Source: Nitrospira sp. (lineage in GTDB: Bacteria > Nitrospirota > Thermodesulfovibrionia > UBA6902). Taken from it: a stretch of DNA of 64,000 bases. The notes under the pieces were generated by a model that searched no databases, had not been told where the DNA came from, and saw only the letters and a list, made by a program, of their open reading frames with translations. Shown one piece after another: positions 2,622 through 63,456 of the stretch. The stretch covers positions 8,746-72,745 of the forward strand of contig JADHUV010000009.1 in NCBI GenBank assembly GCA_016784355.1. The letters run 5' to 3'. The stretch's first letter is position 1. Every line of letters begins with the position of its first letter. A program made the translations under genes and the position numbers.

Positions 2622-2636
2622 GCAGGAGAATGGCCG

Positions 2637-4121: not shown

Positions 4122-4150
4122 CTGACATTATACACAACAGGGAAGGAGGC

Positions 4151-5686
4151 TTACAGTTCCGTACTGTTGAGTTTGTATTTTCTTATTTTATAGCCTATCT
4201 GTCGAGGGGTAATACCCAGAAGTCTCGCGGCTTTGGATTGGTTCCATCCGGTTTTTTCAAGGGACTCCAGTATATTGGCTTTTTCGATTTCTTCAACATT
4301 GGCGCTGAGTGAGCCTGAATCGACCAGTATTTGCGAGGGCTTAAGGCTCAGGGAAACCGGAAGTTCCGATGGGGTGATTTTGTCCACGCCAGTCATTATG
4401 ACAAGTCTTTCTATTGTATTTTCAAGTTCTCTGACATTGCCGGGCCAATTATAACTGAGTAGTACTTGAAGAGCATATTTATCCAGGGAAACCATCCTGT
4501 TATTTTCTTTATTGAATTTATCCAGAAAGAATTCAATAAGTACGGGGATATCTTCACCCCTTTCCCGTAAGGGCGGCAGGAATATGGGTATTACGTTTAG
4601 CCTGTAATATAAATCTTCCCTGAATTTCCCCCGTGCTGCCAGATCCTCCAGGTTCCTGCTGGTTGCTGTAATGATTCGCACATCAACCTTTATGGTGTTT
4701 TCGCTGCCTACCCGCTCGAACTCTTTTTCCTGTAGTACGCGCAGTATCTTAGGCTGCAGTGATACAGGCAGGTCGCCTATCTCATCCAGGAAAATGGTTC
4801 CCGCCTCAGCAAGTTCAAACTTGCCTTTTCTTGAGGCTATGGCACCCGTGAATGCCCCTTTTTCATGTCCGAAGAGTTCTGACTCCAGGAGGCCTTCTGG
4901 GATCGAGGCACAATTAAACTTAATAAATGCTCCTTTGCTGCGGGGGCTCATATAGTGTATGCCTTTGGCGATAAGTTCTTTGCCCGTTCCGCTTTCTCCC
5001 CGGAGCAGTACGGTTGCCTTTGACGGCGCGACCCGGTGCACAGCCTCATATACGCCCTGTATTTTGTCTGACATACCGATCATGTTTTCTATGCGGTATT
5101 TACCCTGTAGCTCTCTTTTCAGGTCTTCTTTTTCATGCTCGATTTCTTCATAACTTTCCCATAGTTTGATAAATTGTGCTATAAGTGAAGCCACGATTGT
5201 CAGGACCCGGAGATCATCATCGACATTACCCAGTTTTTCTGAGTATATTCTATCAACGCTCAGAACCCCGAGGACCTCCTCTTTGAGCATTAAAGGTATG
5301 CAAAGGAAAGAGACCCCTGCCTTTGCCGGTCGAGCCCCTGTTTTATTCAGGAAAAGCGGTTCATTGTCAATATTTTGTATGACCATAGGTCTTTTCTTTT
5401 CAAGTACACGTCCAACAATGCCTTCGCCAATCCTGTATTTACCTTTCTCTATGTTCTTTTTTGTCAGGCCGTGAGCAGCTACAATGCGCAGTTCCCCCGA
5501 AAGAGGATCGAGAAGAAACACGCACCCTCTCTGCATTTCAAGAAGCGTTCCAAGGGTGGACATCACAGACTGCAGGTTTTTCTCCAGAGCGAATGAAGTC
5601 GTCAGTACACGGCTTACCTCTAAAATTGCGGTAAGTTCCCTGTTTTTTTGTACGATCAGGTTGGTTTCTTGTTTGATGACTGACAT
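4151..5686 (-). CDS. Sigma-54-dependent transcriptional activator with an N-terminal GAF domain and a C-terminal Fis-type HTH
   Basis: Walker A GESGTGKE, the sigma-54 contact loop ESELFGHEKGAFTGA, an arginine-finger region, and the C-terminal HTH AARLLGITPRQIGYKIRKY. The N-terminal ~170 aa are GAF-like. Confidence 0.9.
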   Translation of the reverse strand: MSVIKQETNLIVQKNRELTAILEVSRVLTTSFALEKNLQSVMSTLGTLLEMQRGCVFLLDPLSGELRIVAAHGLTKKNIEKGKYRIGEGIVGRVLEKKRPMVIQNIDNEPLFLNKTGARPAKAGVSFLCIPLMLKEEVLGVLSVDRIYSEKLGNVDDDLRVLTIVASLIAQFIKLWESYEEIEHEKEDLKRELQGKYRIENMIGMSDKIQGVYEAVHRVAPSKATVLLRGESGTGKELIAKGIHYMSPRSKGAFIKFNCASIPEGLLESELFGHEKGAFTGAIASRKGKFELAEAGTIFLDEIGDLPVSLQPKILRVLQEKEFERVGSENTIKVDVRIITATSRNLEDLAARGKFREDLYYRLNVIPIFLPPLRERGEDIPVLIEFFLDKFNKENNRMVSLDKYALQVLLSYNWPGNVRELENTIERLVIMTGVDKITPSELPVSLSLKPSQILVDSGSLSANVEEIEKANILESLEKTGWNQSKAARLLGITPRQIGYKIRKYKLNSTEL

Positions 5687-8443: not shown

Positions 8444-8507
8444 GTTGCGGATATAAGTCCTGAGGGTAATCCCAGGGCAATGGTTCGCAAGAAAAGAGGT
8501 CGGATTT

Positions 8508-9992
8508 ATGAAAGTTACATTAGTCAATGCGCAGGTACTGGATGGCAACAATGTTGTTCCGCCATTGGGGCTTCTGTATGTGGCCGGCTCGCTGGAAGCT
8601 GCCGGACATGAGGTACAGATCTTTGATGCGGATCCCGAACACGAAACAACCATGCTTCAGCAGATCAAGGACTTTAATCCGGGACTGATAGGCATAAGCT
8701 TTCTGACGGTAGCATATGAACGTGCGGAGGGTCTTTGTAAGGCTCTGAAAAAAGTTCTTCCGGATGTAATGTATTGCGCAGGAGGCGTGCATGCCACGGT
8801 CAAGCCTGAAGAAACATTGAAGGCGTTTGACCTTGATTTGATAATTATGGGTGAAGGCGAGCACACCATGGTAGATTTATGTAACAGGCTCTCAAAGAAT
8901 GAGAGTATTGAGGATGCCCCTGGATTGCTTTATCAAAAAGACGGCGCGATTGTCAGGACTGAACCAAGAGAGCTTATTCAGGATCTTGACTCCATACCAT
9001 TTCCTGCCAGACACCTTATTGATATGACCCCGTATCTGAAGCCCCCGGGAATTATCAGGGGTTATGCTGATAAGAATCAGACAACAATAGTGACCAGTCG
9101 AGGCTGTCCTTTTAAGTGTATTTATTGCGGAAGTCATAATATATTCGGCAGAAAGACCAGGCGGCGCTCATATCAGAACGTTGTTGATGAGATTGAACAT
9201 CTTGCTAAAAATTTCGGTATCAGAGGTATATATTATTGTGATGACACCTTTACCCTTAGTTCCAGGTGGGTTAAGGAATACTGTAATGAATTGAAGAAGA
9301 GAAAACTTGATATTAAGTGGGGCTGTCAGTCGAGGGTTGATCAGACAGACAGGGCACTTATGATAGAGATGAAGTCCTCAGGTCTCGTGCAGCTTGATTT
9401 CGGTGTTGAGAGTGGTTCTGAAAAGATACTTAAGGTACTTGGTAAGGGCGGAGCAGGTGACAGGACATCCCAGATCAAGGAATCCTTCAAGCTTTGCAAG
9501 GAACTTGATATTAGGACTCTTGCTACGTTTATCATTGGTAATCCGACAGAGACAAAGGAGGATATCGATGAGAGCTTTGCGGTAGCAAAAGAAATACAGG
9601 CGGATTATACCGCATTTTATTTCCTGACTCCTTATCCGGGTACGGACATTTATGATCAGGCTATTGCAAATGGATGGCTTGATCCGAACCTGCCTTTCTC
9701 TGAGATATGGGCACACAGGCAGCCGGAACTGCCTCTGATGGCTATTACATTTAGTCAGGAAGATTTAAGGGATATCAGACGTAATCTGCAGAATCATTTC
9801 TTCAGAAAAAATTATCTCGTAAGATCAGGGAATATTAGTTTTTATTCCATCCTGTCTACGATATTTTTCAGGAATCCGGGAATATTCCTGACGGCCTTTG
9901 GGAAATTTCTCCGGACCCGTAGGATGGATTACATAGTTGAGACTTTGAATGCTGAGTACTGGAGAATTAAAAAGTATGAGGGTGCAGGTTAA
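8508..9992 (+). CDS. B12-binding-domain radical SAM protein (class B rSAM)
   Basis: N-terminal Rossmann-like B12-binding region (PPLGLLYVAGSLEAAGHEV). rSAM cluster motif SRGCPFKCIYCGS. Lies 64 nt downstream of the fusion gene on the same strand. Confidence 0.85.
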   Translation: MKVTLVNAQVLDGNNVVPPLGLLYVAGSLEAAGHEVQIFDADPEHETTMLQQIKDFNPGLIGISFLTVAYERAEGLCKALKKVLPDVMYCAGGVHATVKPEETLKAFDLDLIIMGEGEHTMVDLCNRLSKNESIEDAPGLLYQKDGAIVRTEPRELIQDLDSIPFPARHLIDMTPYLKPPGIIRGYADKNQTTIVTSRGCPFKCIYCGSHNIFGRKTRRRSYQNVVDEIEHLAKNFGIRGIYYCDDTFTLSSRWVKEYCNELKKRKLDIKWGCQSRVDQTDRALMIEMKSSGLVQLDFGVESGSEKILKVLGKGGAGDRTSQIKESFKLCKELDIRTLATFIIGNPTETKEDIDESFAVAKEIQADYTAFYFLTPYPGTDIYDQAIANGWLDPNLPFSEIWAHRQPELPLMAITFSQEDLRDIRRNLQNHFFRKNYLVRSGNISFYSILSTIFFRNPGIFLTAFGKFLRTRRMDYIVETLNAEYWRIKKYEGAG

Positions 9993-10015
9993 GGCCTGAG
10001 CTTAAACAGATAGAA

Positions 10016-10048
10016 GCCGGGGTGTGTTTTTACCGCCCCGGTTTTTTT
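10016..10048 (+). terminator. Rho-independent terminator closing the two-gene rSAM operon
   Basis: Stem CCGGGG / CCCCGG (10017-22 / 10036-41) followed by T7 (10042-48). Confidence 0.65.
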
Positions 10049-10069
10049 ATCAGCTCAGTCGGTGATCTT

Positions 10070-11449
10070 TTATCGATGGGGCGGGTTTTTTTCGTTCAGA
10101 GCTCCCGCCAATGAATGCGCAAACTCTGAAAGACTTTCATCCCGTGCGCCGAAAATAACATAGGTGTCATGTAGTGCGGCCATATGCAGAATTTCATTTC
10201 TATTTGCAAGGTCAACTGTCTTATTATTTACCCTAATTCCTTCCGCCAGACTCCGGCTTGATATCTCTTTGCTGACAGTTCCCCCAGCGTAATATATCGG
10301 CAGCAGTATGAGCCTGTCGGATATCCTGAGATTAGTAGAAAAAGTTTTTATATACTCATCCTTCATCATCTTCGTAGGTGCATAACCATGGGGCTGGAAT
10401 ATATAGCATATATTGTCCCTGATAGCCGAAGCAGCGCGCATCATGGCCTCTATCTTGTGAGGGTTATGCGCATAATCATCAATGACAAGATGAACTCCGT
10501 CATTTAAGTGGATATCAAAGCGTCTCTCTATCCCCAGAAACTCAGGCAGCACATCGGCTATATCGGCGGCGGGGATTCCGATTTCACTCAGAAGGGCAAT
10601 GCATGACAGTGCGTTATATACATTATATTTTCCCGGGATGGAAAGTGAAAAAGTAGTCTTGTTAATGTTGAACTCAGAGCCAAATGCCATAAAATGAATA
10701 TTCTCTGCTCTGTAGTCAGAGGGCGCTTCGATGGAAAATCCTACAGCATCACTTCTTCGGATTCTGTCCAGGTATACATCATCATAATTGAGCAGGATTT
10801 TTCCCGTGGTATTGTCCATCAGGGTCTGAAACATAGAAGATGTGTGATTAATGGAATGGTGATCGAGGTCCAGATTTAGAATGATTGTATGCTCAGGCTT
10901 GTAATGTATAATACTCCCATCAGATTCGCAGGCCTCGATGACCAGTGTCTCTGAAACTCCGGAAAGTGAGTTGCCTGCACATGAGGGAGATCGGAATTGA
11001 CTTACCCTTCCGCCACCGAGGAAATTAGGAGACAGTCCCAGTCTTTCCATTAAAAAAGCCAGCATGCCTGATACAGTAGATTTACCGCTGGTTCCGGCCA
11101 CTGCAACAGTCCTGAAGGATCGGGTGATATCCGCCAGTAATTCCGGGCGCGTCATAAGGGGTATCCCTATTAATTTTGCCTTGAGTATCTCGGGGTGGTC
11201 AGCCTCGATAGCAGTACTAAACACTGCAAGATCAAGTGACTCATTAATTCCACTGCCGTCTTGTGGAAAGAGTGAAATGCCTTGAGAGGGGAAGAAAGAT
11301 TTCAGGGGGTGCTCGCCGTTATCAAAGGCCCTGTCCGAGCCGGTAATAATATGGCCCTTTTTTGCCATAAATCCGGCCAGTGCGGAGACGCCGCTGCCTC
11401 CTATGCCGGAAAAGAATATTCTGGAGTTCTTCTTAATCATATGAAGCAT
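10070..11449 (-). CDS. Mur ligase family protein (MurC/Mpl-type)
   Basis: N-terminal Rossmann motif FSGIGGSGVSALAGFMAKKGHIITGSD, ATP-binding loop AVAGTSGKST, and a C-terminal Mur ligase domain. It stands alone rather than in a dcw cluster. Confidence 0.7.
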   Translation of the reverse strand: MLHMIKKNSRIFFSGIGGSGVSALAGFMAKKGHIITGSDRAFDNGEHPLKSFFPSQGISLFPQDGSGINESLDLAVFSTAIEADHPEILKAKLIGIPLMTRPELLADITRSFRTVAVAGTSGKSTVSGMLAFLMERLGLSPNFLGGGRVSQFRSPSCAGNSLSGVSETLVIEACESDGSIIHYKPEHTIILNLDLDHHSINHTSSMFQTLMDNTTGKILLNYDDVYLDRIRRSDAVGFSIEAPSDYRAENIHFMAFGSEFNINKTTFSLSIPGKYNVYNALSCIALLSEIGIPAADIADVLPEFLGIERRFDIHLNDGVHLVIDDYAHNPHKIEAMMRAASAIRDNICYIFQPHGYAPTKMMKDEYIKTFSTNLRISDRLILLPIYYAGGTVSKEISSRSLAEGIRVNNKTVDLANRNEILHMAALHDTYVIFGARDESLSEFAHSLAGALNEKNPPHR

Positions 11450-17563: not shown

Positions 17564-18337
17564 CTATATCCGCTTGATCTCATGTGCCATGACCCATGCG
17601 AGCTTATTATCATCCCTTTTGATCTTAAACCAGTCTTTCTTTTCAGATATGATCCTGACTTTCATTCCCCTATATAGGGTGTAATGGGATGTAGCGCTTT
17701 TAAATGGCTCGAATCTCGCCTCAGCGATCTCTGTGATAACCACCGCCTCGCTGTTGAGCAGATTAATACGGTTCGTTATAGCATATAGCAGGGGCAGAAT
17801 AAGTATAAATACAAGAAAAATGAGAAATAGTGAGCGCTTCCTGAAGGCAAATATATACATACGTGCCAGAAATGCAGCAGCGGCCGCAAGCAGCAGAAAA
17901 GAGACTGATAGCGTTAGTTCGTTCAGGGAGAGAAAGCTGAAGAGGTTGAGGAAATGTCTGGACAGGGGGACCTTGTGCTCAGAGATATCAAACGTCAGAC
18001 CGCTTTTTGCATAGTTATAGTTTGAGTTAAGGTCGCTGTCTCTGGGCATAAGTCGTAATGCCCTTTCATAATACAATATGGCCATGCCCGGCTCGTTTAT
18101 TTTAAAATAGCTGTTGCCCATGTTGTAATAGATATTACCGCTCTCGTGGCCGGTCTGTTCCAAAGAGTCATACGCTTTTATAGCCTCAGTATAATTACCT
18201 TCTTCATAATGTGTGTTTCCCTTGTAAAAGAGGTAAGCGGGGTCGCTGCCGGCTTCTTGACAATTGCCGGTATCATATATGAAAACGGACATCATTATGA
18301 AAAAAAGCAGGATGTATTTATCAATATGTTTAAACAT
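17564..18337 (-). CDS. BatE-like protein (TPR repeats, TM segments, C-terminal SH3-like domain)
   Basis: TPR motifs (YYNMGNSYFK.., AILYYERAL) and a C-terminal SH3b-like block KDWFKIKRDDNKLAWV. It is the last gene of the Bat-type operon. Confidence 0.6.
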   Translation of the reverse strand: MFKHIDKYILLFFIMMSVFIYDTGNCQEAGSDPAYLFYKGNTHYEEGNYTEAIKAYDSLEQTGHESGNIYYNMGNSYFKINEPGMAILYYERALRLMPRDSDLNSNYNYAKSGLTFDISEHKVPLSRHFLNLFSFLSLNELTLSVSFLLLAAAAAFLARMYIFAFRKRSLFLIFLVFILILPLLYAITNRINLLNSEAVVITEIAEARFEPFKSATSHYTLYRGMKVRIISEKKDWFKIKRDDNKLAWVMAHEIKRI

Positions 18338-20136
18338 TATTTCAGCCTTTCCAATCTCTCAATCACTTTTTTTAACTCTGTCAGGGACTTTCTCATTGTC
18401 TCCCCTGTTATGGTCGCAGAAGCGTATCTGGCCAAATCACATTGATCCAGTATTGCCTGCAGTTTCTGCATGGTTTCAGTATCAACATCTCTGCCTTGCA
18501 GGATTACTGGTGCTGACTCTGCAGTGATGCCAGCAGATACTATATTAAAACGGTCGCTGATATAGTCCTTTATTATGCTGAAAACAGAGTCATGAAATTC
18601 CGCCGTCATGTTTTTATCAATGAATTTGGCAGCCTCCTTTATGCTAGCCGCAGCCTGATCCGGTGCCTTGAGTCTCCGGGCATATCCGGTGTTATTTTTG
18701 AGGCGCTCAATCTTTTTCCGGTAGAAATAAAATGCGGCCAGGGCGATTAAGGCAGTCAGGTGAATACCGAGATATAGAGGGCTGTTATAAAGGTATTGTC
18801 CGGTTTTCCTTATATCTCCCGGTGACTCCTTGATATAGATAATATCGCGACCGATAGAGTCTTCTGCTGTGCGCTGTACAGTATCCTTCTGGGAATCTAC
18901 TATAACAGCCCTCTTACTGCCCACGGTTTTCGCAACATTTACAGAGAAAGGGCCTCTGACGATTGTCTCGTATTGTGAAGATGCAGGGTTGAAAAAGCTG
19001 AACCTGGCCTCAGGCAGGGCGGTAACTTCATGCGACAGCGGTATAAAAATCTGTTCAAATATTTTCGTGTTTCCGTCCTGCGTGACCTGTGGATCGTAGA
19101 CTTTTATATTGTCCGGTATTTTAATCAGGGGTGAAGTTACGGAAGTAGAATTACCGTTTCCGCTTATGCTGATTTTCATAGTAATCGGATCTCCTGTATT
19201 GACCGAGGCAGGGGAGATGCCTGCCTCCATGCTGAACCTGCCTACTGCGCCGTCGAATCCCTCGGGTCGGTCCTTTTCAGGGAGAGGCAGGACAGATATA
19301 GAGATCCTTTCCGTTGTCAGTTCAATCGGTTCTGCTTCTGACCGCCCGAAAAGATCATTCATGGGATCATTGCCGAAAAAATCATCCAGAGGTGAGCGTC
19401 CGCGCCCCTGGCGTTTTACTATTATACTTGCGCCAAGAACAGCCGGGCCAAGATCAAGAGTGCCTGTCTTGGTAGCATAAAACGTAGTATTGAACTCAAC
19501 TACATCATAGATAACCCCATTTTTTCTCTCCTGGTACTGCCTGGGCTTTCCGAGCTCTTCTACTGAAAAGCCTTCGTATTTAAGCTCCGGATATCTTATA
19601 TTGCGTACACTCAGACCATTTACATAAAGTTTTATTTTCAGGGGGATTTCTTCGTTAATGTAGAGCTCTGTCTTTTCCGGTTCCATAACAAGAAAGATGC
19701 GGTCCTGTGCCGCCTGGTTAGTGCTGCCGCTGCCAGGTGCTGCCAAGCTGGAGACCTCTACTTTCAGGGCATTTGAGGTAAAGGTATCGTTATTGTGTTT
19801 AAAGGAGAAGGGCCCTATAGCAAAGATACCTGTTTTCAGTGCCACTAGCCTGTACATATAGGTTATTGAGGATGTCATTTTACCGTTTACTATTGACATC
19901 TCAGTTGAGGGACCGAGGTATCGGGAGCTAAAACCCTCTATGTCCGGAAGCTCTATCACCGGGACATCGCGAATCTTGTCAAATTTAAAATTGAGCTGTA
20001 TTGCATCTCCCGTCTGAATTATATTTCTGTTTGCGCTTATCTGAAATGCCACATCCTCAGAAAAGGCTGTTGCAGATATCAAAAATATATATAGAAAGAT
20101 AAATATCGTTTTTTTATATTCAGCTATTAATTTCAT
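18337..20136 (-). CDS. BatD-like oxygen-tolerance protein
   Basis: Signal peptide, a large beta-rich ectodomain and a single TM helix near residue 460. Its position between the BatC-like and BatE-like genes fits. Confidence 0.6.
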   Translation of the reverse strand: MKLIAEYKKTIFIFLYIFLISATAFSEDVAFQISANRNIIQTGDAIQLNFKFDKIRDVPVIELPDIEGFSSRYLGPSTEMSIVNGKMTSSITYMYRLVALKTGIFAIGPFSFKHNNDTFTSNALKVEVSSLAAPGSGSTNQAAQDRIFLVMEPEKTELYINEEIPLKIKLYVNGLSVRNIRYPELKYEGFSVEELGKPRQYQERKNGVIYDVVEFNTTFYATKTGTLDLGPAVLGASIIVKRQGRGRSPLDDFFGNDPMNDLFGRSEAEPIELTTERISISVLPLPEKDRPEGFDGAVGRFSMEAGISPASVNTGDPITMKISISGNGNSTSVTSPLIKIPDNIKVYDPQVTQDGNTKIFEQIFIPLSHEVTALPEARFSFFNPASSQYETIVRGPFSVNVAKTVGSKRAVIVDSQKDTVQRTAEDSIGRDIIYIKESPGDIRKTGQYLYNSPLYLGIHLTALIALAAFYFYRKKIERLKNNTGYARRLKAPDQAAASIKEAAKFIDKNMTAEFHDSVFSIIKDYISDRFNIVSAGITAESAPVILQGRDVDTETMQKLQAILDQCDLARYASATITGETMRKSLTELKKVIERLERLK

Positions 20137-20171
20137 CTTACGCCCTGATTCATTTTGAGATAGTCACTGTC

Positions 20172-21014
20172 TTACCAGTCCTTTGCAACTTCCGGATAAA
20201 TTGCAGAGGTATTTTTTTCCAGGTTTCTATCCTCTTCTTTGCCAAACGCTTCAAGCAGTGCCTTGGCCTCATCCGGAGTCATTTGGTCAATTTCTTCTGC
20301 CTGCTCCCCGCTGCCCGTATCTTCTTTCCCGGCCTCATCTCTCTTGGCTGATTTATCATCGGCCTTTTCCTGCTGCTGAGAATCTTCGGAAGGATCCTTC
20401 TTCTCCTCCTCCCCGTTATCCCTTTGTTTTTCCTGATCGGCAGATTCCTGTTGTTCTTTTTCCTGATCTTTCTTGTCGGAATCTTTCTGCTCGTCATCTT
20501 GTGGCGGTTGGCTTTTCAGCTTTTCCATGAGCAGTTTCAACTCCTGCTCTACCAGCTCATAATTATACATGGCATCGGTGTTTTTCTGGTTAAGTTCGAT
20601 AGAGCGTTTGTAATAATCCAGTGCCTCGCCGTAAAATTCAAGAGCGGCCTTTGGGTCGCTTTCGGCAAGGCTGCTTCCGAGATTATATTTTGCATTGGCT
20701 ATGTTGTACGAGGCTTGCTCCTCAACGGATATGTTTTCTGTATTCAGGGCAAGGGTAAAGGCCTCGATGGATTCTTTTAGCTGACCTTTTCTATACAGGG
20801 CTGTCCCAAGGTTGAAATTTATGATCTCCGGGTCAGATTCTTTTATTCGGGCAGACTCGTACATGCTTATGGCTTGATCATAGTTTTCATTCTTGTAATA
20901 ATCATTGCCTCTTTTTACATCACTTGCGGCAGAGGCCGCGAGGCAGTTAGCAGGCGCAAAGGCTGCCAGTATAATGAAAAGCAGTGCGAATATTAAATTA
21001 AAGATCATGATCAT
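20172..21014 (-). CDS. BatC-like TPR protein with an acidic low-complexity C-terminus
   Basis: Signal/TM segment, TPR repeats and a long D/E/K/Q-rich tail. Confidence 0.6.
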   Translation of the reverse strand: MIMIFNLIFALLFIILAAFAPANCLAASAASDVKRGNDYYKNENYDQAISMYESARIKESDPEIINFNLGTALYRKGQLKESIEAFTLALNTENISVEEQASYNIANAKYNLGSSLAESDPKAALEFYGEALDYYKRSIELNQKNTDAMYNYELVEQELKLLMEKLKSQPPQDDEQKDSDKKDQEKEQQESADQEKQRDNGEEEKKDPSEDSQQQEKADDKSAKRDEAGKEDTGSGEQAEEIDQMTPDEAKALLEAFGKEEDRNLEKNTSAIYPEVAKDW

Positions 21015-21021
21015 TTTTCAT

Positions 21022-22047
21022 TTAAAAGTTTAGCCTGTGCTGCTGATCTGCAGGCCCCCTCTCGCTTATAAACAATTCCAGGCATAGCAGTATTAAGGCA
21101 AAAATAAGCAGGATCTGGAAGCGGTCCTCATATTGTTTGGCCATTTTATTTTCAATATCTCTCTTTTCTATCTTAGAGAGTTTTTCATCATATAGAAGCT
21201 CCAGTCCGAATTCTGTTGAGGTGGCCCGGATATAACTGCCCCCGGTCTTCAGCGCGATGCTTTTAAGCGTAGCCTCATCAAGACGGGTTTTTACTACATT
21301 TCCGCTGCGGTCTTTAAGGAATGTCTGTTGCCCCTGACTGTTAATGATAGGGATAAGTTCTCCGTCTGCAGAGCCTATGCCTATCGTATATATCTTTAAG
21401 CCATCTGCACCGGCCTTCTCAGCCATCTCGATCGGCTTGCCCCCATGGTCTTCCCCGTCCGTTATAATGATAAGGATTTTATTTTCCTTGATGCCGCCTT
21501 CGTAACTTTTCATCGCTGTCTCTATAGCACTTGTTATAGAAGTACCTCCTTTTGGGATGGTTCCGATATTCAGGTCGTCCAATGACAACATGAACCCATT
21601 GTAGTCTGCGGTAAGAGGCGCCTGCAGAAAGGAACTTCCGGCAAAGGCAATCAGGCCTATTCGGTCGCCTCTGAGTCGTTTTATGAAATCTTTAACGGCA
21701 AGTTTTGAGCGCTCCATCCTGCTGGGCTTTACATCTGTTGCCAGCATGCTTTTTGAGGTATCAATGGCTATTATTATATCGAGACCGCTTCTTTTGACCT
21801 CACGCCACTGAAAGCCCCACTGCGGACGGGCAAGGGCTATTATCATAATCACAATGGCGCACACCGTAAGTGATATTTTTATTGCCTGTCTCCGCTCGCT
21901 TAATGATATGATGAGATGCCGCAGCAGTGAGCTTTCAGCAAATCTCTGAAGATCTGCGGCTCTTTTTCTACGGGCCCAGAATAAAAAAGCCAGCAGTGCT
22001 GCAATGCCCCATATGAAATGCATGGAATCAGGGCTGGCGAATTTCAT
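21022..22047 (-). CDS. VWA-domain protein (BatB-like)
   Basis: N-terminal TM helices and the MIDAS motif IIAIDTSKSM. Confidence 0.8.
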   Translation of the reverse strand: MKFASPDSMHFIWGIAALLAFLFWARRKRAADLQRFAESSLLRHLIISLSERRQAIKISLTVCAIVIMIIALARPQWGFQWREVKRSGLDIIIAIDTSKSMLATDVKPSRMERSKLAVKDFIKRLRGDRIGLIAFAGSSFLQAPLTADYNGFMLSLDDLNIGTIPKGGTSITSAIETAMKSYEGGIKENKILIIITDGEDHGGKPIEMAEKAGADGLKIYTIGIGSADGELIPIINSQGQQTFLKDRSGNVVKTRLDEATLKSIALKTGGSYIRATSTEFGLELLYDEKLSKIEKRDIENKMAKQYEDRFQILLIFALILLCLELFISERGPADQQHRLNF

Positions 22048-22075
22048 CGTTGGTCTCCCGGGCAGGTAGTGTGCA

Positions 22076-23071
22076 TTATGGCAATCTCCGTAACACAGTA
22101 TTTTTTAATATCATTTCCGCAATGAGCAGCAGTATTCCGGGAATAAGGAACAAGTGAAATATTTCACCGTAAACAGCATAGCCCTCTTCCTCGATATCTG
22201 TTTTTTCCATTTCATCTATCTCTTTGTATATCTCTCTCAGGGAATCTGTATCTGTCGCGCGAAAGTATCGGCCATTGGTCTTGTCGGCCACCTGCATGAG
22301 GATTTCTTCATCTACATCGATCCTCACATTTTTGTATATTGTCCTGCCGAAGGCACTCTTTACGGGGTAGGGTGCAAGGCCTCTGGTTCCGGCTCCTATA
22401 GTATAGACCTTTATGTTTAATGCATTGGCAGCCCCTGCCGCTGTGAGAGGTGAGATCCTGCCGGAATTATTTCTGCCGTCTGTCAACAGGATAACAACTT
22501 TGCTTTTTGCGGTGGAATCTTTGAGCCGGTTCAGGGCCGAACTCAGGCCGGAACCTATGGCGGTACCATCCTCAATCATCCCGGTTTCTATACGCTGCAG
22601 GTTTTGTATGAGCCAACTGTAATCAAGTGTCAGCGGAGCGACAGTATATGCCCTGGATGCAAATGCAACTATGCCTATGCGGTCACTGTAGCGATTGCCA
22701 ATGAATTCCTTTACCACTTCTTTTACAGCGCTCAGCCGGTTGGTCCGTCTGCCCTCAAGCTTGAAGTCTTCGGCCAGCATGCTTGTAGAGGTATCTATGG
22801 CCAGCACTATATCAATACCCTCAGCCTCTATCTTGGCATCCTCCAGCATTTCCTGCGGGCGGGCAAGAGCGATAACTATCAGCAGCAGGGCAAGTATACG
22901 TACGACTATAAGGCTTTTAGCCGTTCTGGTTCTCAGGGTTTGTCCCAGACCTTTAAACATCTTCCCGGAGGGAAAGAGAAGCGCCGGGTGATTTGTCTTT
23001 GTCCTGCTGTATATGCTCAGCGCAAGTACGACAGGTAGAAATAGCAGAAGCCAGGGATCATTGAAATGCAT
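22076..23071 (-). CDS. VWA-domain protein (BatA-like)
   Basis: N-terminal TM helices, MIDAS motif VLAIDTSTSM and a C-terminal TM helix. Confidence 0.8.
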   Translation of the reverse strand: MHFNDPWLLLFLPVVLALSIYSRTKTNHPALLFPSGKMFKGLGQTLRTRTAKSLIVVRILALLLIVIALARPQEMLEDAKIEAEGIDIVLAIDTSTSMLAEDFKLEGRRTNRLSAVKEVVKEFIGNRYSDRIGIVAFASRAYTVAPLTLDYSWLIQNLQRIETGMIEDGTAIGSGLSSALNRLKDSTAKSKVVILLTDGRNNSGRISPLTAAGAANALNIKVYTIGAGTRGLAPYPVKSAFGRTIYKNVRIDVDEEILMQVADKTNGRYFRATDTDSLREIYKEIDEMEKTDIEEEGYAVYGEIFHLFLIPGILLLIAEMILKNTVLRRLP

Positions 23072-23880
23072 CAGTCCTCACCCCTGCCTTTTGCACCCGT
23101 CTCCACAACGAGATGTTCAGCCGAGTCATAACTGCTGCGAATCTCGTCTTCCCCGGGCTGATGTTTAGCAAACTTAACCATATCGCATTGAACAAGAAAC
23201 TCACTCAGCAGTCCCTTATGTGCAGGCTTAAGCTGGTGGGCATTTTTCAGGTGAACAAGAAACTCTTCAGTCGTCATTTCAGGGGCCTTGAAATAAAAAC
23301 GATCCTCCAGGTAGTGCCTGACTATATCTGAAAGCTCGACATAAAACTCCTGCACCCTGCCGCTAGTGATATAGTCTTTTTCCATTAAAACTTTTAAGGA
23401 TTCCAGAGCTGTTTCATGCGGGGGAGGCGGTACGATTATCGGCTCTCCTGCATATTTTTTCTTTCTCAGCATGAAATAAATGATCAGGGCAATGATAAGT
23501 GCTGCAATAGCAAGGATAATATAAATATAACTGAGATCCCGTAAGGAAAGAGGCGGTTTGATATCTTTCAGCAGGGGTGTACCCTCAGTTGCCTGTAGCA
23601 GGCTGGTAACTGTTATATCGATATCAGGCAGGGTAGTTTTCTGCCATGTCTCGCTGTCTTTTTTGCGGAACCTGACGGTATGGCCTTTTAAGGTGTATGC
23701 GGCCGGCTTGAAAGTGCTCATCATATACCAGGCACGATGGGTCTTGGTGAACAGACCGTTGACCGAACTGCCGGATTTATTTATCTCAAGTCCTGCATCC
23801 TGATCTTCAGGCTCCTGAAATCTGATCTCATAACTTCTCGGGGCCGTGACCTCTATTGTATAAGTGATGAGCTCGCCCAC
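23071..23880 (-). CDS. Membrane protein of the Bat/MoxR operon (BatD-N-like ectodomain plus one TM helix); the true N-terminus is probably further upstream
   Basis: Central TM helix IYIILAIAALIIALIIYFML. The same frame is open for 44 more codons upstream, and these encode a signal-peptide-like stretch (see findings). Confidence 0.5.
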   Translation of the reverse strand: MGELITYTIEVTAPRSYEIRFQEPEDQDAGLEINKSGSSVNGLFTKTHRAWYMMSTFKPAAYTLKGHTVRFRKKDSETWQKTTLPDIDITVTSLLQATEGTPLLKDIKPPLSLRDLSYIYIILAIAALIIALIIYFMLRKKKYAGEPIIVPPPPHETALESLKVLMEKDYITSGRVQEFYVELSDIVRHYLEDRFYFKAPEMTTEEFLVHLKNAHQLKPAHKGLLSEFLVQCDMVKFAKHQPGEDEIRSSYDSAEHLVVETGAKGRGED

Positions 23881-23995
23881 ATTGGCGGAGTGTTTATCGA
23901 CGGTTGCTGTTATCGCAGGTACGGCAGGCTCTTCGGCGTAGAGGTTACCGATAAAAATAAGGAGCAGACAGAGTATCAGGGGCGCAGTTTTTATC

Positions 23996-24871
23996 TCACA
24001 CCCGCCTTTCCCTCATTCTGAAAAAAGAGTAGAGGGCACGTGTGTAGGGTTCATCCGTTTTCACAGCAATATGGTCTACATTGACTGAACGGAAGAGCGC
24101 CTGTCGCTCCTGAACCATCCTGGCCGCATTTGCCTCAAACCGGGTTCTGACGGCCTTATTTGAAGTATCGACAAGAAATCGTTTTCCTGATTCGGCATCT
24201 TCAAGCTCGGTTAAGCCCATATTCGGCAGGCTCAATTCCCTTGGATCGGTCACCGAAACAGCTATAAGGTCATGTCGTTTATTGGCGATTGAGAGGGCTT
24301 TTTTAATATCCTCGGTATAAAAGTCAGAGATTATAAAACATATGGATTTTCTGCTGGTAGTACGATTGAGATACTCCAGTGCCCCGGCTATGTCAGTGCC
24401 GGTACCTGTCGGCCTGAAATACAGCGCTTCCCTGATAATTCTTAATACATGACGCAGTCCTTTTTTTGGAGGAATAAATTGCTCTATGCGGTCTGTAAAG
24501 GATATCAGTCCTACCCTGTCGTTGTTTTTTATAGCGGACATGGCAAGAACTGAGCAGAGTTCTGCCGCCAGTCGGTTTTTCAGTCTATTTACGGTTCCGA
24601 ATGCTGACGATGCTGAGATATCAAGCAGGAGCATTATGGTCAGTTCCCTTTCCTCCATAAACTTTTTGATAAAGGGGTGACCGGTTCTAGCTGTTACGTT
24701 CCAGTCAATAGAGCGAATATCATCGCCGGGCTGGTATTCTCTGACCTCTTCAAACTCCATTCCATGTCCTTTAAACACGCTATGGTAATGGCCGGCAAAG
24801 ACATCTGTGGCCATACGGGAGGTAGTGATCTGAATCCGTCTTATGTTCTTCAGAATTTCTTTGGGTATCAT
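23996..24871 (-). CDS. DUF58-family protein (MoxR-associated, VWA-like)
   Basis: Conserved block EFEEVREYQPGDDIRSIDWNVTAR. It sits directly downstream of the MoxR ATPase gene. Confidence 0.8.
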   Translation of the reverse strand: MIPKEILKNIRRIQITTSRMATDVFAGHYHSVFKGHGMEFEEVREYQPGDDIRSIDWNVTARTGHPFIKKFMEERELTIMLLLDISASSAFGTVNRLKNRLAAELCSVLAMSAIKNNDRVGLISFTDRIEQFIPPKKGLRHVLRIIREALYFRPTGTGTDIAGALEYLNRTTSRKSICFIISDFYTEDIKKALSIANKRHDLIAVSVTDPRELSLPNMGLTELEDAESGKRFLVDTSNKAVRTRFEANAARMVQERQALFRSVNVDHIAVKTDEPYTRALYSFFRMRERRV

Positions 24872-52104: not shown

Positions 52105-52865
52105 TGGGAAGACCGCTTGGGCAGCATTTTCTTTTTGATAAAAATATACTGAAAAAGATAATCAGGTATTCGGGAATAACAAAAAAAGATACGGTTGTTG
52201 AGATCGGGCCTGGACTCGGTCCGCTGACAGCCCTGCTTGCTGAAAGTGCGGGGAGGGTGGTGGCGCTGGAAAAGGACCGGAAGCTCATAGACCGGCTTTC
52301 TGAAAATCTTAAGGGGTATGACAATGTCGAGATCGTAAGCACGGATGCCCTGAAGTATCCATACGAAACACTTGGTGATAGTTTCAGGGTGGTTGCAAAT
52401 ATACCCTATTACATTACCACTCCGATAATCTTTAATCTGCTTGAATACCGGGCCTCGCTTAAAAGTATGACCCTGCTGATGCAGAAGGAGGTAGGGAGGC
52501 GAATTGTTGCAGTGCCGCCCGGCCGTGAGTACGGTGTACTCTCGATTTCTACGCAGCTATATACCCGTCCTGAGCTTAAGTTTACGGTCTCCAGGAAGGC
52601 CTTCTCTCCGCCGCCGGCAGTTGATTCTGCTGTTGTTCATTTCGATGTTTCGCCGGTGCCCTTGTATGATGTGGGGGATGCACAGTTGTTTCGCTCTATA
52701 GTGAAGGCCTGTTTTTCTCAGCGCAGAAAAACCATTCTCAATGGTCTGAAGGCCTTTGAGGGAATCAGGGAGGCACTGGATGCAGCTGGTATTGATCCTG
52801 TTGTCAGGCCGGAAACGCTCTCCATAGACAAGTTTGCAGATCTTGCCCGATGTCTGCGTAAGTAA
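52104..52865 (+). CDS. rsmA: 16S rRNA (adenine1518/1519-N6)-dimethyltransferase
   Basis: LGQHFL start, EIGPGLGPLT SAM motif and the NIPYYITTPI block. Its GTG start overlaps the AddA stop by 1 nt. Confidence 0.9.
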   Translation: MGRPLGQHFLFDKNILKKIIRYSGITKKDTVVEIGPGLGPLTALLAESAGRVVALEKDRKLIDRLSENLKGYDNVEIVSTDALKYPYETLGDSFRVVANIPYYITTPIIFNLLEYRASLKSMTLLMQKEVGRRIVAVPPGREYGVLSISTQLYTRPELKFTVSRKAFSPPPAVDSAVVHFDVSPVPLYDVGDAQLFRSIVKACFSQRRKTILNGLKAFEGIREALDAAGIDPVVRPETLSIDKFADLARCLRK

Positions 52866-53103
52866 ATTTTTTTTACAGCCTCTCGAGAACACTTTTTGTG
52901 TATAATTGTCATAGCAAATTCAATGCCTGATTACTGTAAATATGTTTTACAGTAGGCGTTTTATGTCCCTGTAACCTACGCTTTTATTGGTTTTGCGAGA
53001 TATATTTATGTGTAAATATCCTTTACAATCAAGCAGGAACCCCCTCTGTGTGCTGTTTTTGAAACTTTTTTAACACCCCCTAAAGTAAATTTCTTTTACA
53101 GCC
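52860..53103. promoter_or_regulatory. Array of four GTAAA-N5-TTTAC(A) inverted repeats spaced 73-76 bp apart, upstream of the S8 protease gene
   Basis: Copies are centred at 52869, 52943, 53019 and 53092. Copy 2 extends to TACTGTAAA-tatgt-TTTACAGTA. Copies 1 and 4 are 20/21 identical over AAGTAAATTT[T/C]TTTTACAGCC. Confidence 0.6.
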
Positions 53104-53177: not shown

Positions 53178-55367
53178 GTGTATAATCGAATGGTTCGTGT
53201 ACTTTCTTGTATGGCAGTTGTGCTGATACTGGCCGGTTATTTTTCATTCGCTTATGCAGAGTATGTGCCGGGTGAGGTTCTGGTTAAGTACAGGGACGGC
53301 AGCATGATATCTGAGAGTACGCTTTCCGAGGATGCCGGAATACAGCAGAAAAAGGATTTCCGTGCGATCCGGCTGCATCACATGGCGCTTCCGGAAAATA
53401 TGTCAGTGCAAGAGGCAATAGCAATTTATCAGCAGGATCCCAATGTTGAGTATGCAGAGCCCAATTATATTGTTGAAATAAATACTATTCCGGATGATAC
53501 TGATTTTACAGGTTTGTGGGGCATGCACAATGAAGGACAGACTGGGGGAGCAGTAGATGCGGATATTGATGCCCCTGAGGCCTGGGAACTTACTGTCGGA
53601 TCCGAAGATGTCATTGTGGCGGTAGTTGATACAGGGGTGGTTTATACACATCCGGACCTTAGTGCAAATATATGGACGAATTCCGGAGAAACCAGCTGCG
53701 TCGATGGTATTGACAATGATGGTAACGGCTATATTGATGATTGTAATGGCTGGGATTTTGTCGGCAGTGATAATGATCCTACAGACTATAATGGACATGG
53801 CACGCATGTAGCCGGAACTATTGCTGCGGTAGGAAATAATGCAGACGGCGTTAGCGGTGTGATGTGGAGAGCAAAGATTATGCCTCTTAGATTCCTGGGT
53901 GTAAATGGCACAGGCACTACCGCAGATGCTGTATCAGCGATACTTTATGCCTCTGCCAATGGCGCTCATGTTATAAACAATAGCTGGGGCGGCGGTGGAT
54001 ATAGTCAGGCATTGAAGGATGCTATAGATGCATCAGATACGGTGGTGGTATGCGCTGCCGGCAATAGTGGCAGTAATGTTGAGAGCACTCCATTTTATCC
54101 CGCCAGTTACACGAGTTCCAATATTATCTCTGTTGCCGCTACAGACCACAATGATCAATTGGCTGCTTTTTCCAATTATGGCATTACGTCCGTAGATATA
54201 GCCGCCCCCGGCGCTGGTATATACAGCACTGTACCGGTAATTGGCTATGGGGCACCGGTTACTGTTTACAGTCAACAGAGTTTTGAGGGTGCCTCCGGTG
54301 AACTTCCGCTGCTGGGCTGGAACCGGGGCGGAGCAAATTCCTCCTGGTCAGTTACGAGCGGTACCGGTACAGATGGAAGTAACAGCCTTGAGGACAGTCC
54401 CGGGGCTGACTATAGTAACAGCACTGGCTCCTGGGCAGGTTATATGACCCCGATAACCTCGGTGAAGGACAATATATACACTCTAACATTCAGCTGGAAG
54501 GGTGAGCTGGAAAATTATTTTGATTATCTGGATATTAACTATTCTCTGGACGGAAGCTCCTGGGACTGGGTTGATTACCGTACGGGCAGCACCAGTGGAG
54601 ATTTTGAGTCAGACTCCTCTGAGGATCTTACAAGCATTGCGGAGTCTTATGATGAATTTTATTTTGGCTTCGGTATTACTGCTGATAGCTCCGTAACCAG
54701 CGAGGGTGTGAGCATTGATGATATTGAATTAACTAGAACTCCTCTGCGGATTAGCAGTTACGGCTATTCAAGTTATAACGGGACATCCATGGCCGCTCCT
54801 CATGTGGCCGGGGTTGCAGGGCTTGTCAAGGCGCTGCATCCGGAATTTTCCAATCTGCAGATTCGGAGTGCGATAATAAACAGCGTAGATGTAAAAGCGG
54901 ATCTGGTGGGAAGTATCGCAACCGGAGGCAGACTGAATGCCTATGGGGCCCTTGTTGAAACGAATATCGATGTTATCAGTGATGGCAGCGGTGACAGTGA
55001 AACTGTTGTAGTGCCGGGAAGCAACTCAGGTATAGTTGAGGCAGCAGCCGGCGGTGGCGGCGGCGGTGGCGGCTGTTTTATCGCAACTGCGGCATACGGA
55101 AGTTTTATGCACCCGTATGTCAGGGATCTCAGAGAGTTCAGGGATGATTATTTATTGAGCAATTATCCGGGCAGGCTTTTTGTATATATGTATTACAAGT
55201 ACTCACCGCCTGTAGCGAATATTATAAAAGACAGCGAAGGCCTGCGGTTTGCATCAAGGATATTGCTGGCTCCAGTTGTTGCAGCAGTTACGATGCCTTA
55301 CCATGTACTGACATTAATGCTTGCAGGGGGTTTCATCTATATGCTCCGCCGCCGCAGAGTCCGGTAG
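53178..55367 (+). CDS. Secreted subtilisin-like (S8) serine protease with an inserted beta-rich module and a Gly8-CFIATAAYGS C-terminal anchor domain
   Basis: SD GGGAGG plus a GTG start. Signal peptide, then an I9-like propeptide. Catalytic D (VAVVDTGV), H (HGTHVAG) and S (GTSMAAPHVAG). An insert of ~190 aa lies before the Ser motif. The C-terminus is GGGGGGGGCFIATAAYGS ... hydrophobic helix ... RRRRVR. Confidence 0.9.
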   Translation: MYNRMVRVLSCMAVVLILAGYFSFAYAEYVPGEVLVKYRDGSMISESTLSEDAGIQQKKDFRAIRLHHMALPENMSVQEAIAIYQQDPNVEYAEPNYIVEINTIPDDTDFTGLWGMHNEGQTGGAVDADIDAPEAWELTVGSEDVIVAVVDTGVVYTHPDLSANIWTNSGETSCVDGIDNDGNGYIDDCNGWDFVGSDNDPTDYNGHGTHVAGTIAAVGNNADGVSGVMWRAKIMPLRFLGVNGTGTTADAVSAILYASANGAHVINNSWGGGGYSQALKDAIDASDTVVVCAAGNSGSNVESTPFYPASYTSSNIISVAATDHNDQLAAFSNYGITSVDIAAPGAGIYSTVPVIGYGAPVTVYSQQSFEGASGELPLLGWNRGGANSSWSVTSGTGTDGSNSLEDSPGADYSNSTGSWAGYMTPITSVKDNIYTLTFSWKGELENYFDYLDINYSLDGSSWDWVDYRTGSTSGDFESDSSEDLTSIAESYDEFYFGFGITADSSVTSEGVSIDDIELTRTPLRISSYGYSSYNGTSMAAPHVAGVAGLVKALHPEFSNLQIRSAIINSVDVKADLVGSIATGGRLNAYGALVETNIDVISDGSGDSETVVVPGSNSGIVEAAAGGGGGGGGCFIATAAYGSFMHPYVRDLREFRDDYLLSNYPGRLFVYMYYKYSPPVANIIKDSEGLRFASRILLAPVVAAVTMPYHVLTLMLAGGFIYMLRRRRVR

Positions 55368-62196: not shown

Positions 62197-63456
62197 ATGG
62201 ATTTATATTTAATAATTATTATTGCGGGCTATTGCCTTGTCTCAGGATTCGGATACTGGCTTGATTACCTGAATCTTGTTCACCTGGGTAAATTCGGGGC
62301 TGTTATCCCTGAAGAGTTCGAGGGGCATATTGATCAGGATCTGCTCGTAAAAACCAGTGCCTATAACATCGAAAACGCGCGGTTTGGTTTTGTATCATCC
62401 ATATTTAACAATGCAGCGGTGCTTACGTTTATGCTGGTGCTGCTCAATATATACAATAACTGGATCAAATCCTTAGACCTTTTCTTTATAGCATCGGGCA
62501 TAGTTTTTTTTCTGCTAATGACATATGCGGAAACTTTAATCTCAATGCCGTTTAGCCTGTATCACACGTTTAGAATAGAGAACCGGTATGGTTTTAATAC
62601 TATGACTTTCAGGCTCTGGATTATTGATGCCTTAAAATCATTGGCGGTTTCCACCATTCTTCTGGCACTTTTAGTATCTGCAGGTCTGTATATTATTCAG
62701 AAGAGTCCGGATCTTTGGTGGTTATGGCTTTGGAGCTTTTTTCTGTTTTTCAGCATCGTTATGATGTATGTAGCTCCATATGTTATTGAGCCTCTTTTTC
62801 ACAAGTTCAGCCCGATCGGCGATGAATCGCTTGAGTCTGATATCAGGGGGCTTATGGAGAAGGCAGGGATTAAGGTGAGTCGGGTGTTTAAGGTAGATGC
62901 CTCCCGCCGGACGCGACATACCAATGCTTATTTCACCGGTATTGGAAGGGTGAAGCGTATTGTTTTGTATGATACGCTGCTTGAGACTATGGACAGGGAG
63001 GAGATCCTGGCAGTTTTGGCCCATGAGGCAGGTCACTGGAAGAAGAAACATCTGCTGAAGCACCTTGTTACAAGTGAGGTGTTCGCACTGGTGATTTTGT
63101 ATATTGCCTGGCACGTGCTGAAGAATGATATGCTGTCCGGTATTTTTCATTTGACAAACGGGACCTTTTTTTCCGAGGCAGTGCTTCTGGGTTTTGTGGC
63201 CTCCATACTCGCCTTTCCTCTGGGGCCGGTATTTAATTATATTTCGAGGAGGCATGAAGAAGAGGCGGATAGATATTCGTATGAAATGACGGGCAGCGGT
63301 GAGGGGATGACAGGCGCATTGGTAAAGCTGTCTACGGATAATCTTTCAAATCTTCATCCTCATCCACTGTATGCGCTTTTCCACTATTCTCACCCTCCAG
63401 TTCTTCAGAGGATCAGAGCAATAAAGGGGTTTAGCCGGGCGGACTCTCCGGATTAA
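62197..63456 (+). CDS. M48-family (Ste24/HtpX-like) integral membrane zinc protease
   Basis: HExxH in LAHEAGHWKKKH, multiple TM helices and the C-terminal HPP..R motif. Confidence 0.85.
   Translation: MDLYLIIIIAGYCLVSGFGYWLDYLNLVHLGKFGAVIPEEFEGHIDQDLLVKTSAYNIENARFGFVSSIFNNAAVLTFMLVLLNIYNNWIKSLDLFFIASGIVFFLLMTYAETLISMPFSLYHTFRIENRYGFNTMTFRLWIIDALKSLAVSTILLALLVSAGLYIIQKSPDLWWLWLWSFFLFFSIVMMYVAPYVIEPLFHKFSPIGDESLESDIRGLMEKAGIKVSRVFKVDASRRTRHTNAYFTGIGRVKRIVLYDTLLETMDREEILAVLAHEAGHWKKKHLLKHLVTSEVFALVILYIAWHVLKNDMLSGIFHLTNGTFFSEAVLLGFVASILAFPLGPVFNYISRRHEEEADRYSYEMTGSGEGMTGALVKLSTDNLSNLHPHPLYALFHYSHPPVLQRIRAIKGFSRADSPD

Follow-up and report, generated by a model that had tools for sequence, protein, structure and literature searches.

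A probable membrane-tethered subtilisin-family protease of Nitrospira sp. with a nested MAM-like domain and a CFI-box C-terminal domain

Introduction

What does a domain of 174 residues do inside the catalytic domain of a secreted protease, and how is such a protease held at the cell envelope by a C-terminal box for which no handling enzyme stands out? These questions are raised by a gene at positions 53178 to 55367 (plus strand) of a 64,000-nucleotide stretch of DNA from Nitrospira sp. (assembly GCA_016784355.1, contig JADHUV010000009.1, positions 8,746 to 72,745 of the forward strand), hereafter called the window. We consider it probable that the product of this gene is an exported, membrane-tethered protease of the subtilisin family, with a nested MAM domain and a C-terminal domain known as CFI-box-CTERM. 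The gene is an assembly of known parts in a new variant and one among more than 100 close homologues, which come mainly from metagenome-assembled genomes (MAGs) of Nitrospirota and Thermodesulfovibrionia; several metagenome contigs encode the identical protein. Neither the insert nor the C-terminal domain is a chance feature, because both are conserved in hundreds of proteins.

Results

The open reading frame (ORF) is intact, encodes 729 amino acids (aa) followed by a stop codon, and begins with GTG, with a ribosome-binding site, GGGAGG, located 6 nt 5' of the start. With Pfam and NCBIfam, the whole gene (53178..55367; all features of the protein are given on the plus strand) was annotated as a pre-pro-subtilase with a nested MAM-like domain and a CFI-box-CTERM. 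Peptidase_S8 (PF00082) scored 201 bits (cutoff, 21.8), its match being divided by the insert into two stretches. The closest solved catalytic domain is that of deseasin MCP-01, a collagenolytic S8 protease of Pseudoalteromonas sp. SM9913 (PDB 3vv3; E 1e-88), with a Foldseek template modeling (TM) score of 0.89 on the target and the same D-H-S arrangement. The first part of the catalytic domain (aa 106-354; 53493..54239) aligned with deseasin residues 5-260 (E 2e-77) and the second (aa 529-595; 54762..54962) with residues 262-328. The catalytic residues D151 (53628-53630), H207 (53796-53798), and S537 (54786-54788) lie in order in the DTG, HGTH, and GTSMAAPH motifs, and they and the oxyanion residue N296 (54063-54065) were invariant in an alignment of 67 homologues. 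By its sequence, the gene product is an intact deseasin-type S8 protease, and a pseudogene or inactive homologue was ruled out by the intact frame and the invariant catalytic residues.

Behind the Asp block lies an acidic, calcium-site-like loop with a Cys at both ends, C174-VDGIDNDGNGYIDD-C189 (53697..53744), located by the deseasin alignment. Its residues D179, N183, D187, and D188 were invariant in the homologue alignment, and the loop gave weak, sub-threshold matches to NF033662 and PF11617. The acidic DGIDNDGNGYIDD loop recurs near-verbatim in deseasin MCP-01 and is no peculiarity of the window protein.

The distance between the APG motif (residue 343) and the GTS of the serine motif (residue 535) is 193 aa. 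In the alignment with 3vv3, the insert proper comprises 174 aa (aa 355-528; 54240..54761) and substitutes a single deseasin residue at the tip of the hairpin before GTSMAAPH. In the AlphaFold2 (AF2) model, the long strands 348-357 and 510-533 form a two-stranded ribbon joining the insert to the catalytic core. Modelled alone, the insert was all-beta, with a predicted local distance difference test (pLDDT) score of 89.4. A Foldseek search of this model against the PDB placed the MAM-containing human meprin alpha and beta chains at the top (E 1e-5, TM score 0.62), and carbohydrate-binding jelly rolls ranked after the meprins. The structural relatives of the insert are MAM domains, carbohydrate-binding modules (CBMs), and the gingipain adhesin domain, and its jelly-roll beta-sandwich fold resembles solved MAM domains.

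The insert alone gave no direct Pfam match to PF20773 or PF00629, even at E 10; it is too divergent for one, and it was placed via structure and intermediate sequences only. In another locus with a CFI-box protein (L021), one domain of that protein matches PF20773 (InhA-like MAM) with E 1e-11. The insert profile aligned with this domain at 97.4% hhalign probability (E 1e-11), and the two share 29% identity in BLASTP (E 3e-8). A profile search of 1.84 billion representative proteins recovered the insert-type domain in 1923 clusters and in two contexts: nested, as one copy near residues 380-560 of subtilases of 600-1100 aa, and tandem, as 2-10 repeats in proteins reaching 3700 aa. The four tandem-copy proteins that were scanned with Pfam (P0241, P0258, P0287, and P0292) matched PF20773 with E values of 1e-22 to 1e-46 as well as Reelin_subrepeat-B, and one of them also matched MAM. 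We conclude that the insert is a nested InhA-like MAM domain, with the homology running through intermediates.

These results agree with the initial annotation, which had been made from the sequence letters. It had described the triad blocks as intact, and D151, H207, and S537 are present and unvarying across the 67 homologues; it had counted about 190 aa before the serine motif, which corresponds to the gap of 193 aa with an insertion proper of 174 aa. Its guess at a MAM/jelly-roll-like module is borne out by the meprin matches, the hhalign result, and the tandem relatives matching PF20773, and the structure prediction that it had proposed for the insert yielded the confident all-beta model described above.

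The prevalence of the insert was examined in the best 120 full-length matches, namely, the window protein and 119 homologues with identities of roughly 50-65%. In the 105 of these 120 sequences in which both motifs could be located, the APG-GTS distance was 188-212 aa, with one outlier of 71. No nested domain of this type was seen in any solved subtilase among the top 50 structural matches, and no description of a MAM or jelly-roll insertion in subtilases was found in the literature searched. The nested architecture is common in Nitrospirota and in lineages bearing the type IX secretion system (T9SS). The insert is thus constant across a large subtilase subfamily that appears undescribed. The initial annotation had allowed that it might prove a common feature of a well-described subfamily; it is common in a large one, but that subfamily appears not to be a described one.

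Following the catalytic domain, a disordered Ser/Gly/Asp linker (aa 596-632; 54963..55073; pLDDT <50 for aa 600-631 in AF2) ends in a run of eight glycines encoded by GGC and GGT codons (55050-55073). The next segment (aa 633-701; 55074..55280) matched the NCBIfam model NF041770, CFI_box_CTERM, over its full length (model positions 1-69 of 69) with a score of 92.6 bits (cutoff, 40; E 9e-27). The box itself, CFIATAAYGS, occupies aa 633-642 and lies 97 aa from the protein end. A hydrophobic stretch with a central Pro-Tyr (aa 695-723; 55260..55346) is the single membrane-spanning segment by hydropathy (Kyte-Doolittle 19-residue maximum, 1.83), and it is followed by a predicted cytoplasmic basic tail, RRRRVR (aa 724-729; 55347..55364), where a basic cluster is conserved family-wide. 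One hydrophobic helix with a basic tail fits an N-out, C-in orientation, with the enzyme outside and the tail in the cytoplasm. In AF2, this region is predicted to form four to five helices (635-640, 646-659, 663-684, 687-705, and 707-728). The full-length model had a pLDDT of 85.9, with the insert above 90, the linker disordered, and the helical tail at 76-92.

Across 30 aligned CFI domains, G632, C633, F634, I635, A636, T637, A638, G641, V648, and L651 were invariant, as were F654, R655, G665, Y672, S676, P677, A680, and P699, and nearly every family member has a poly-Gly run in front of the Cys. The C-terminal tail had no Pfam match, even at E 10, and a search of the CFI-box profile against PDB sequences returned chance-level matches only, with no relative among solved structures. 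The C terminus is a genuine CFI-box-CTERM, complete with membrane helix and basic tail. The initial annotation had read the eight glycines, their codons, and their position exactly, and the CFIATAAYGS box, hydrophobic helix, and RRRRVR that it had listed in order were placed at aa 633-642, 695-723, and 724-729. The name "CFI-box," which it had given with reserve, proved to be that of NF041770. Of the Pfam and NCBIfam searches that it had proposed for the tail and the insert, NCBIfam gave the full model for the tail, and Pfam gave a match to neither. Its remark that the processing enzyme is unknown is consistent with our finding no paper on this domain.

To survey the distribution of the domain, loci were scanned for GGGCFIATA with one genome per species, which gave at least 599 stretches, of which at least 559 were confirmed by tblastn. 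They occur in, among others, Nitrospirota, Desulfobulbia, Syntrophales, Gammaproteobacteria, Persephonella, WOR-3, Ratteibacteria, and Vermiphilus, and also in Geobacterales, where cultured carriers are Citrifermentans bremense (WP_026843246.1), Pelotalea chapellei, and Geomonas species. Omnitrophota and a single record from Aenigmarchaeota came in addition from a protein search. The possibility raised at the outset, that the C-terminal region is unique to this protein and matches nothing, therefore failed, given at least 559 loci across many phyla.

Cargo and neighborhoods were studied in a sample of 80 retrieved CFI-box loci (about 1.2 Mb), which contained about 25 cargo clusters. Among them are subtilases, a family of about 620 aa with an HExxH motif, an M23 protein with FN3, MAM, and PD40 domains, a trypsin-like protease, a GDSL lipase, and BNR/sortilin, FG-GAP/ASPIC, DUF11, and YD-repeat proteins. 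The HExxH cargo is the "MXAN_6640 family putative metalloprotease" of NCBI, and it bears a CFI-box-CTERM in the six cultured Geobacterales strains examined. This cluster comprises 23 loci (L026, L058, L063, L071, L077, L080, and 17 others), with the gene near positions 8450-10330, and at 19 loci the gene before it encodes a conserved secreted protein of 172 aa that has no Pfam match.

The subtilases with a MAM insert end in a CFI-box in most cases, and in others in a T9SS domain, a short Cys-containing signal, dockerin-like repeats, or a helix-less tail. The T9SS-ended subtilases P0249 and P0284 have the same propeptide, S8 domain, and nested MAM domain as the window protein and end in Por_Secre_tail. 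This shared architecture indicates that the catalytic module is the same and that the anchor alone has been exchanged. The short alternative end, found on paralogous MAM-insert subtilases, consists of poly-Gly (GGGGG), CSITAG, a transmembrane helix, and KRRKK and resembles a classic tripartite sorting signal of the Cys-containing kind; P0197, the sole CSITAG-ended protein scanned, matched no NCBIfam sorting-signal model at E ≤0.001. Homologues with this end are P0195-P0197, P0200, P0201, P0204, P0209, P0215, P0217, and P0232. Six further proteins (P0198, P0206, P0211, P0261, P0266, and P0279) end 10-20 residues past "GGGG-CFI..." and have no transmembrane helix, for example, GGGGGGCFIDLLVQK; these ends may represent CFI-boxes in decay, truncations at contig ends, or a short tail of a distinct kind. 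The choice-of-anchor pattern in the MAM-insert subtilases is as seen with recognised sorting signals.

CFI domains of the same genome shared 0.59-0.97 identity and those of different genomes a median of 0.60, and four of the six within-genome pairs lay above the 95th percentile of between-genome pairs. This likeness hints at a shared reader or at gene conversion. The closest pair belongs to Bacterium BMS3Bbin05 (L046, 8615-13095), where adjacent genes encoding 559 and 926 aa have CFI domains that are 97% identical. The subtilase serine motif is present in the longer gene only, so that, judged by this motif, the cargo is apparently different; the pair suggests gene conversion or a recent cassette transfer of the anchor.

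A search for processing machinery was made in the window and beside the 80 loci. Among 40 window ORFs scanned with Pfam and one with NCBIfam, no sortase, exosortase, rhomboid, or CPBP family was found, and phmmer found no exosortase homologue in the six-frame ORFs of the 64-kb window. The earlier statement that no sortase- or exosortase-like gene is visible in the window accordingly holds for the 41 scanned ORFs. The neighbors of the protease gene are housekeeping genes, encoding an AddAB-like nuclease/helicase, RsmA, MnmG, a c554-type cytochrome, and SerRS. Beside the 80 loci, no protein family recurred across cargo types under strict or relaxed ORF clustering. What did recur was lineage synteny (the 172-aa protein beside the MXAN_6640-type cargo, MlaE, and MFS), generic regulators, GT2, and ABC proteins. 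Pfam analysis of 68 multi-pass membrane proteins from these loci identified MlaE, MFS, carotenoid-synthase-like proteins, and one exosortase, and no CPBP was present among the 25 most frequent of the 66 families in these neighbors.

The single exosortase (PF09721, E 2e-44) lies at 4634-5566 of L024, a locus from a Deltaproteobacteria MAG (JAUSLB010000098.1), 48 nt from the CFI-box gene at 2763-4586. No other exosortase was detected by phmmer in any of the 80 loci or in the window, and we regard this one as a lead, not as evidence. In the same locus (1257-5566), the CFI-box gene stands between the exosortase and a multi-pass protein that reads as a PrsK-type sensor kinase, and a glycosyltransferase-like ORF adjoins. 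In the window, a Ste24-like M48 metalloprotease with a five-helix CAAX-protease N-terminal domain (62197-63456) was considered because "CFIA" resembles a CaaX box. It was rejected as a processor, as the motif lies 97 aa from the C terminus and is extracytoplasmic and as M48 proteases are unlinked to CFI-box genes elsewhere.

At its N terminus, the precursor carries a predicted Sec-type signal peptide (aa 1-27, ...FSFAYA|EY; 53178..53258) with a basic n-region, a hydrophobic core, and an AxA site from which the probable cleavage site was read; AF2 places a helix at 2-20 within it. This is followed by a fervidolysin-type, I9-like propeptide with a disordered junction (aa 28-105; 53259..53492). 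Fervidolysin_NPro-like (PF22148) matched aa 27-96 with E 1e-15 in Pfam, and the pLDDT fell below 50 at aa 104-113, behind the propeptide. Like other subtilases, the enzyme would presumably remove its propeptide autocatalytically.

Between rsmA and the protease gene, a gap of 312 nt contains an array of four palindromes, GTAAA-N5-TTTAC, spaced 73-76 nt apart (52861..53100). All four exact matches to this motif in the 64-kb window lie in the array, where 0.04 would be expected in the window. The boxes are probably binding sites of a regulator of the protease gene, and the motif was not found upstream of homologues in related loci. An anti-phage defence role was discarded, PADLOC having yielded just a generic subtilase match.

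Elsewhere in the window, a 796-aa fusion of PqqD, radical SAM/SPASM, and class I methyltransferase domains (6053-8443) is adjoined by a B12-binding radical SAM protein (8508-9992). From their domain content, these two genes could be a peptide-maturation pair of the RiPP (ribosomally synthesized and posttranslationally modified peptide) type. A BatA-BatD/VWA/TPR/DUF58 gene cluster at 17564-24871 (minus strand) is unrelated to the subtilase.

Discussion

In the textbook structure of subtilisin, the strand returning from the hairpin before the catalytic Ser lines the S1' and S2' subsites. From this structure and the insertion point, we infer that the MAM module should stand beside the primed side of the cleft. 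On its beta-ribbon stalk, the module would give the enzyme a built-in means of binding substrates or surfaces, the function served by MAM and CBM-type jelly rolls in meprins, InhA, and glycoside hydrolases, and it could alter the substrate range of environmentally abundant proteases. That the insert mainly regulates the enzyme as a lid, or stabilises the catalytic domain structurally, appears unlikely to us. The insertion point directly adjoins the strand of the catalytic Ser, the position and length of the insert (about 190 aa from APG to GTS) are invariant in 105 of the 120 sequences with both motifs, and inserts in other subtilases can affect stability or maturation, all of which would suit such a function. 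However, arrays of 2-10 tandem copies in large surface-type proteins, some with dockerin, FN3, or T9SS signals, are the usual pattern of binding modules, and the structural relatives point the same way; it is for these two reasons that we favor binding over a purely regulatory role.

As for the whole precursor, we propose that it would be exported via Sec by its N-terminal signal peptide, that the C-terminal helix would stop transfer and anchor the protein, leaving the Arg tail in the cytoplasm and the enzyme on the outer side of the cytoplasmic membrane, and that the poly-Gly hinge would give the enzyme reach. The CFI-box may then be a sorting tag read by a shared factor encoded away from its clients; modification or cleavage would take place at the invariant Cys, and the membrane-anchored form would be an intermediate en route to the cell surface. 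We lean slightly toward such a processed tag rather than a passive anchor, because the motif is invariant, is interchangeable with true export signals, and is homogenised within genomes. Several points weigh against this proposal. Between the Cys motif and the transmembrane helix lie 55-60 conserved, predicted-helical residues, a misfit to tripartite signals from which it follows that the CFI-box may instead be a permanent anchor or an oligomerisation module. In addition, a candidate sorting enzyme neither occurs in the scanned window ORFs nor recurs beside the 80 loci, with just six within-genome pairs, recent duplication could also explain their likeness, and no publication on CFI-box-CTERM was found in the literature searched. 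Finally, the placement of the MAM module near the active site rests on the insertion point and the textbook structure.

If the box is processed, the nearest analogue is the family of Cys-containing C-terminal signals. In the published model, the Cys of these signals is lipidated, and a CPBP-type myxosortase encoded away from its clients then cleaves the signal (PMC11980579; Haft preprint). It is possible, and we put this tentatively, that the CFI-box belongs with the cleavable signals of the MYXO-CTERM type. The Cys would then be lipidated, an intramembrane protease (CPBP/Rce1-like or other) would remove the distal helices, and the lipid-anchored protease would be moved to the outer membrane surface. 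In accordance with this, the Cys invariantly follows a Gly, like the GC motif of MYXO-CTERM (PMC11980579), a transmembrane helix with an Arg cluster in the tail is present, the box swaps with other sorting signals on the same catalytic module, and one cargo family was named by NCBI after the Myxococcus locus MXAN_6640; moreover, housekeeping sorting enzymes typically do not adjoin their client genes (Haft preprint). The conserved spacer of 55-60 aa is the chief obstacle, as known Cys signals have the motif against the helix; besides, the Haft preprint on Cys-containing signals does not mention the CFI-box, and no CPBP was seen in the scanned window ORFs or among the most frequent membrane-neighbor families.

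The domain may instead be a permanent tail anchor, a helical module on or within the outer face of the cytoplasmic membrane that would hold a periplasmic protease on a poly-Gly tether with no processing, its Cys and other invariant residues serving folding, membrane interaction, or oligomerisation. We hold this equally as a tentative possibility. The domain is long, with amphipathic helices and a predicted helical bundle (pLDDT 76-92), which sets it apart from short sorting signals; neither the scanned window ORFs nor the surroundings of the 80 loci yielded a partner enzyme; and the domain is present in lineages with usually small genomes, such as Vermiphilus, Omnitrophota, and Aenigmarchaeota. 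A permanent anchor, however, would hardly need the near-absolute invariance of G-CFIATAAYG over phyla and cargo, and related subtilases have a T9SS C-terminal domain, a true export signal, in the same position. The cargo also includes YD-repeat, DUF11, BNR, and FG-GAP proteins, which in diderms are usually surface or extracellular proteins. The lack of a partner enzyme would be explained too if the protein processed itself. The Gly-Cys-Phe site of Hedgehog proteins and intein junctions undergo an N-to-S acyl shift, and by analogy, a shift at Gly632-Cys633 would form a thioester, whose transfer to a lipid or cell-wall nucleophile would release the helical module. Despite the Gly-Cys-Phe junction, the flexible poly-Gly lead-in, and the invariant Thr, Ser, Tyr, Arg, and Asp nearby, we judge this very improbable: the region is predicted to be helical, spans about 70 aa ahead of the transmembrane helix, and so is not a Hint fold, the 30 aligned CFI domains have no invariant His, and the domain has no sequence relative among solved structures.

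The CFI-box could also mark a sorting or anchoring route distinct from those of sortase, exosortase/archaeosortase, rhombosortase, and myxosortase, in which a folded, juxtamembrane helical module bearing the invariant Gly-Cys junction would be handled by an unrecognised enzyme family or by self-processing. We regard this as rather unlikely. If true, such a route would serve dozens of exoproteases and adhesin-like proteins in many bacterial phyla and possibly in some archaea, and the MAM-bearing subtilase would be a typical client of it. Starting points for finding the machinery are that the CFI-box replaces T9SS and other signals, is homogenised within genomes, and has no conserved neighbor. 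Its occurrence in cultured strains of Geomonas, Citrifermentans, and Pelotalea makes experiments possible.

Comparison with known systems

Deseasin MCP-01 has a single residue where the window protein has the 174-aa MAM domain, and it has no CFI-box; its C-terminal part is a PKD domain. The InhA-like MAM family (PF20773) and the MAM domains of meprin, receptor tyrosine phosphatases, neuropilin, and reelin subrepeat B are domains adjacent to others, whereas the window copy lies inside an enzyme domain. In C5a peptidase ScpA, plant SBT3/cucumisin, lactocepin, and pyrolysin-type enzymes, an insert domain between the catalytic His and Ser projects beside the cleft. These PA-domain subtilases follow the same design principle, a domain spliced into the catalytic domain, but with a PA fold instead of a MAM jelly roll; no PA-domain family was among the Pfam hits of the window protein at E up to 1, and its insert folds as MAM-type. 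The MAM insert is a second route, besides the PA domain, to a putative binding module inside the subtilase catalytic domain, adjoining the strand of the active serine.

With regard to the C terminus, the window protein is a full member of NF041770, scoring more than twice the curated cutoff and having the poly-Gly lead-in, box, transmembrane helix, and basic tail. The T9SS C-terminal domain, which can take the same place, is a beta-sandwich export signal cleaved by PorU, whereas the CFI-box is helical and membrane-spanning. MYXO-CTERM-type signals and the CFI-box are both C-terminal on Sec-exported proteins, with an invariant Cys by a Gly, one transmembrane helix, and an Arg-rich end, and both are borne, within a genome, by many unrelated surface or hydrolytic proteins. 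In the short, tripartite signals of the MYXO-CTERM type, the motif adjoins the helix, whereas in the CFI-box the motif stands about 60 aa before the helix, with the Arg cluster present. On these likenesses, the MYXO-CTERM/myxosortase system is the nearest analogue of the CFI-box.

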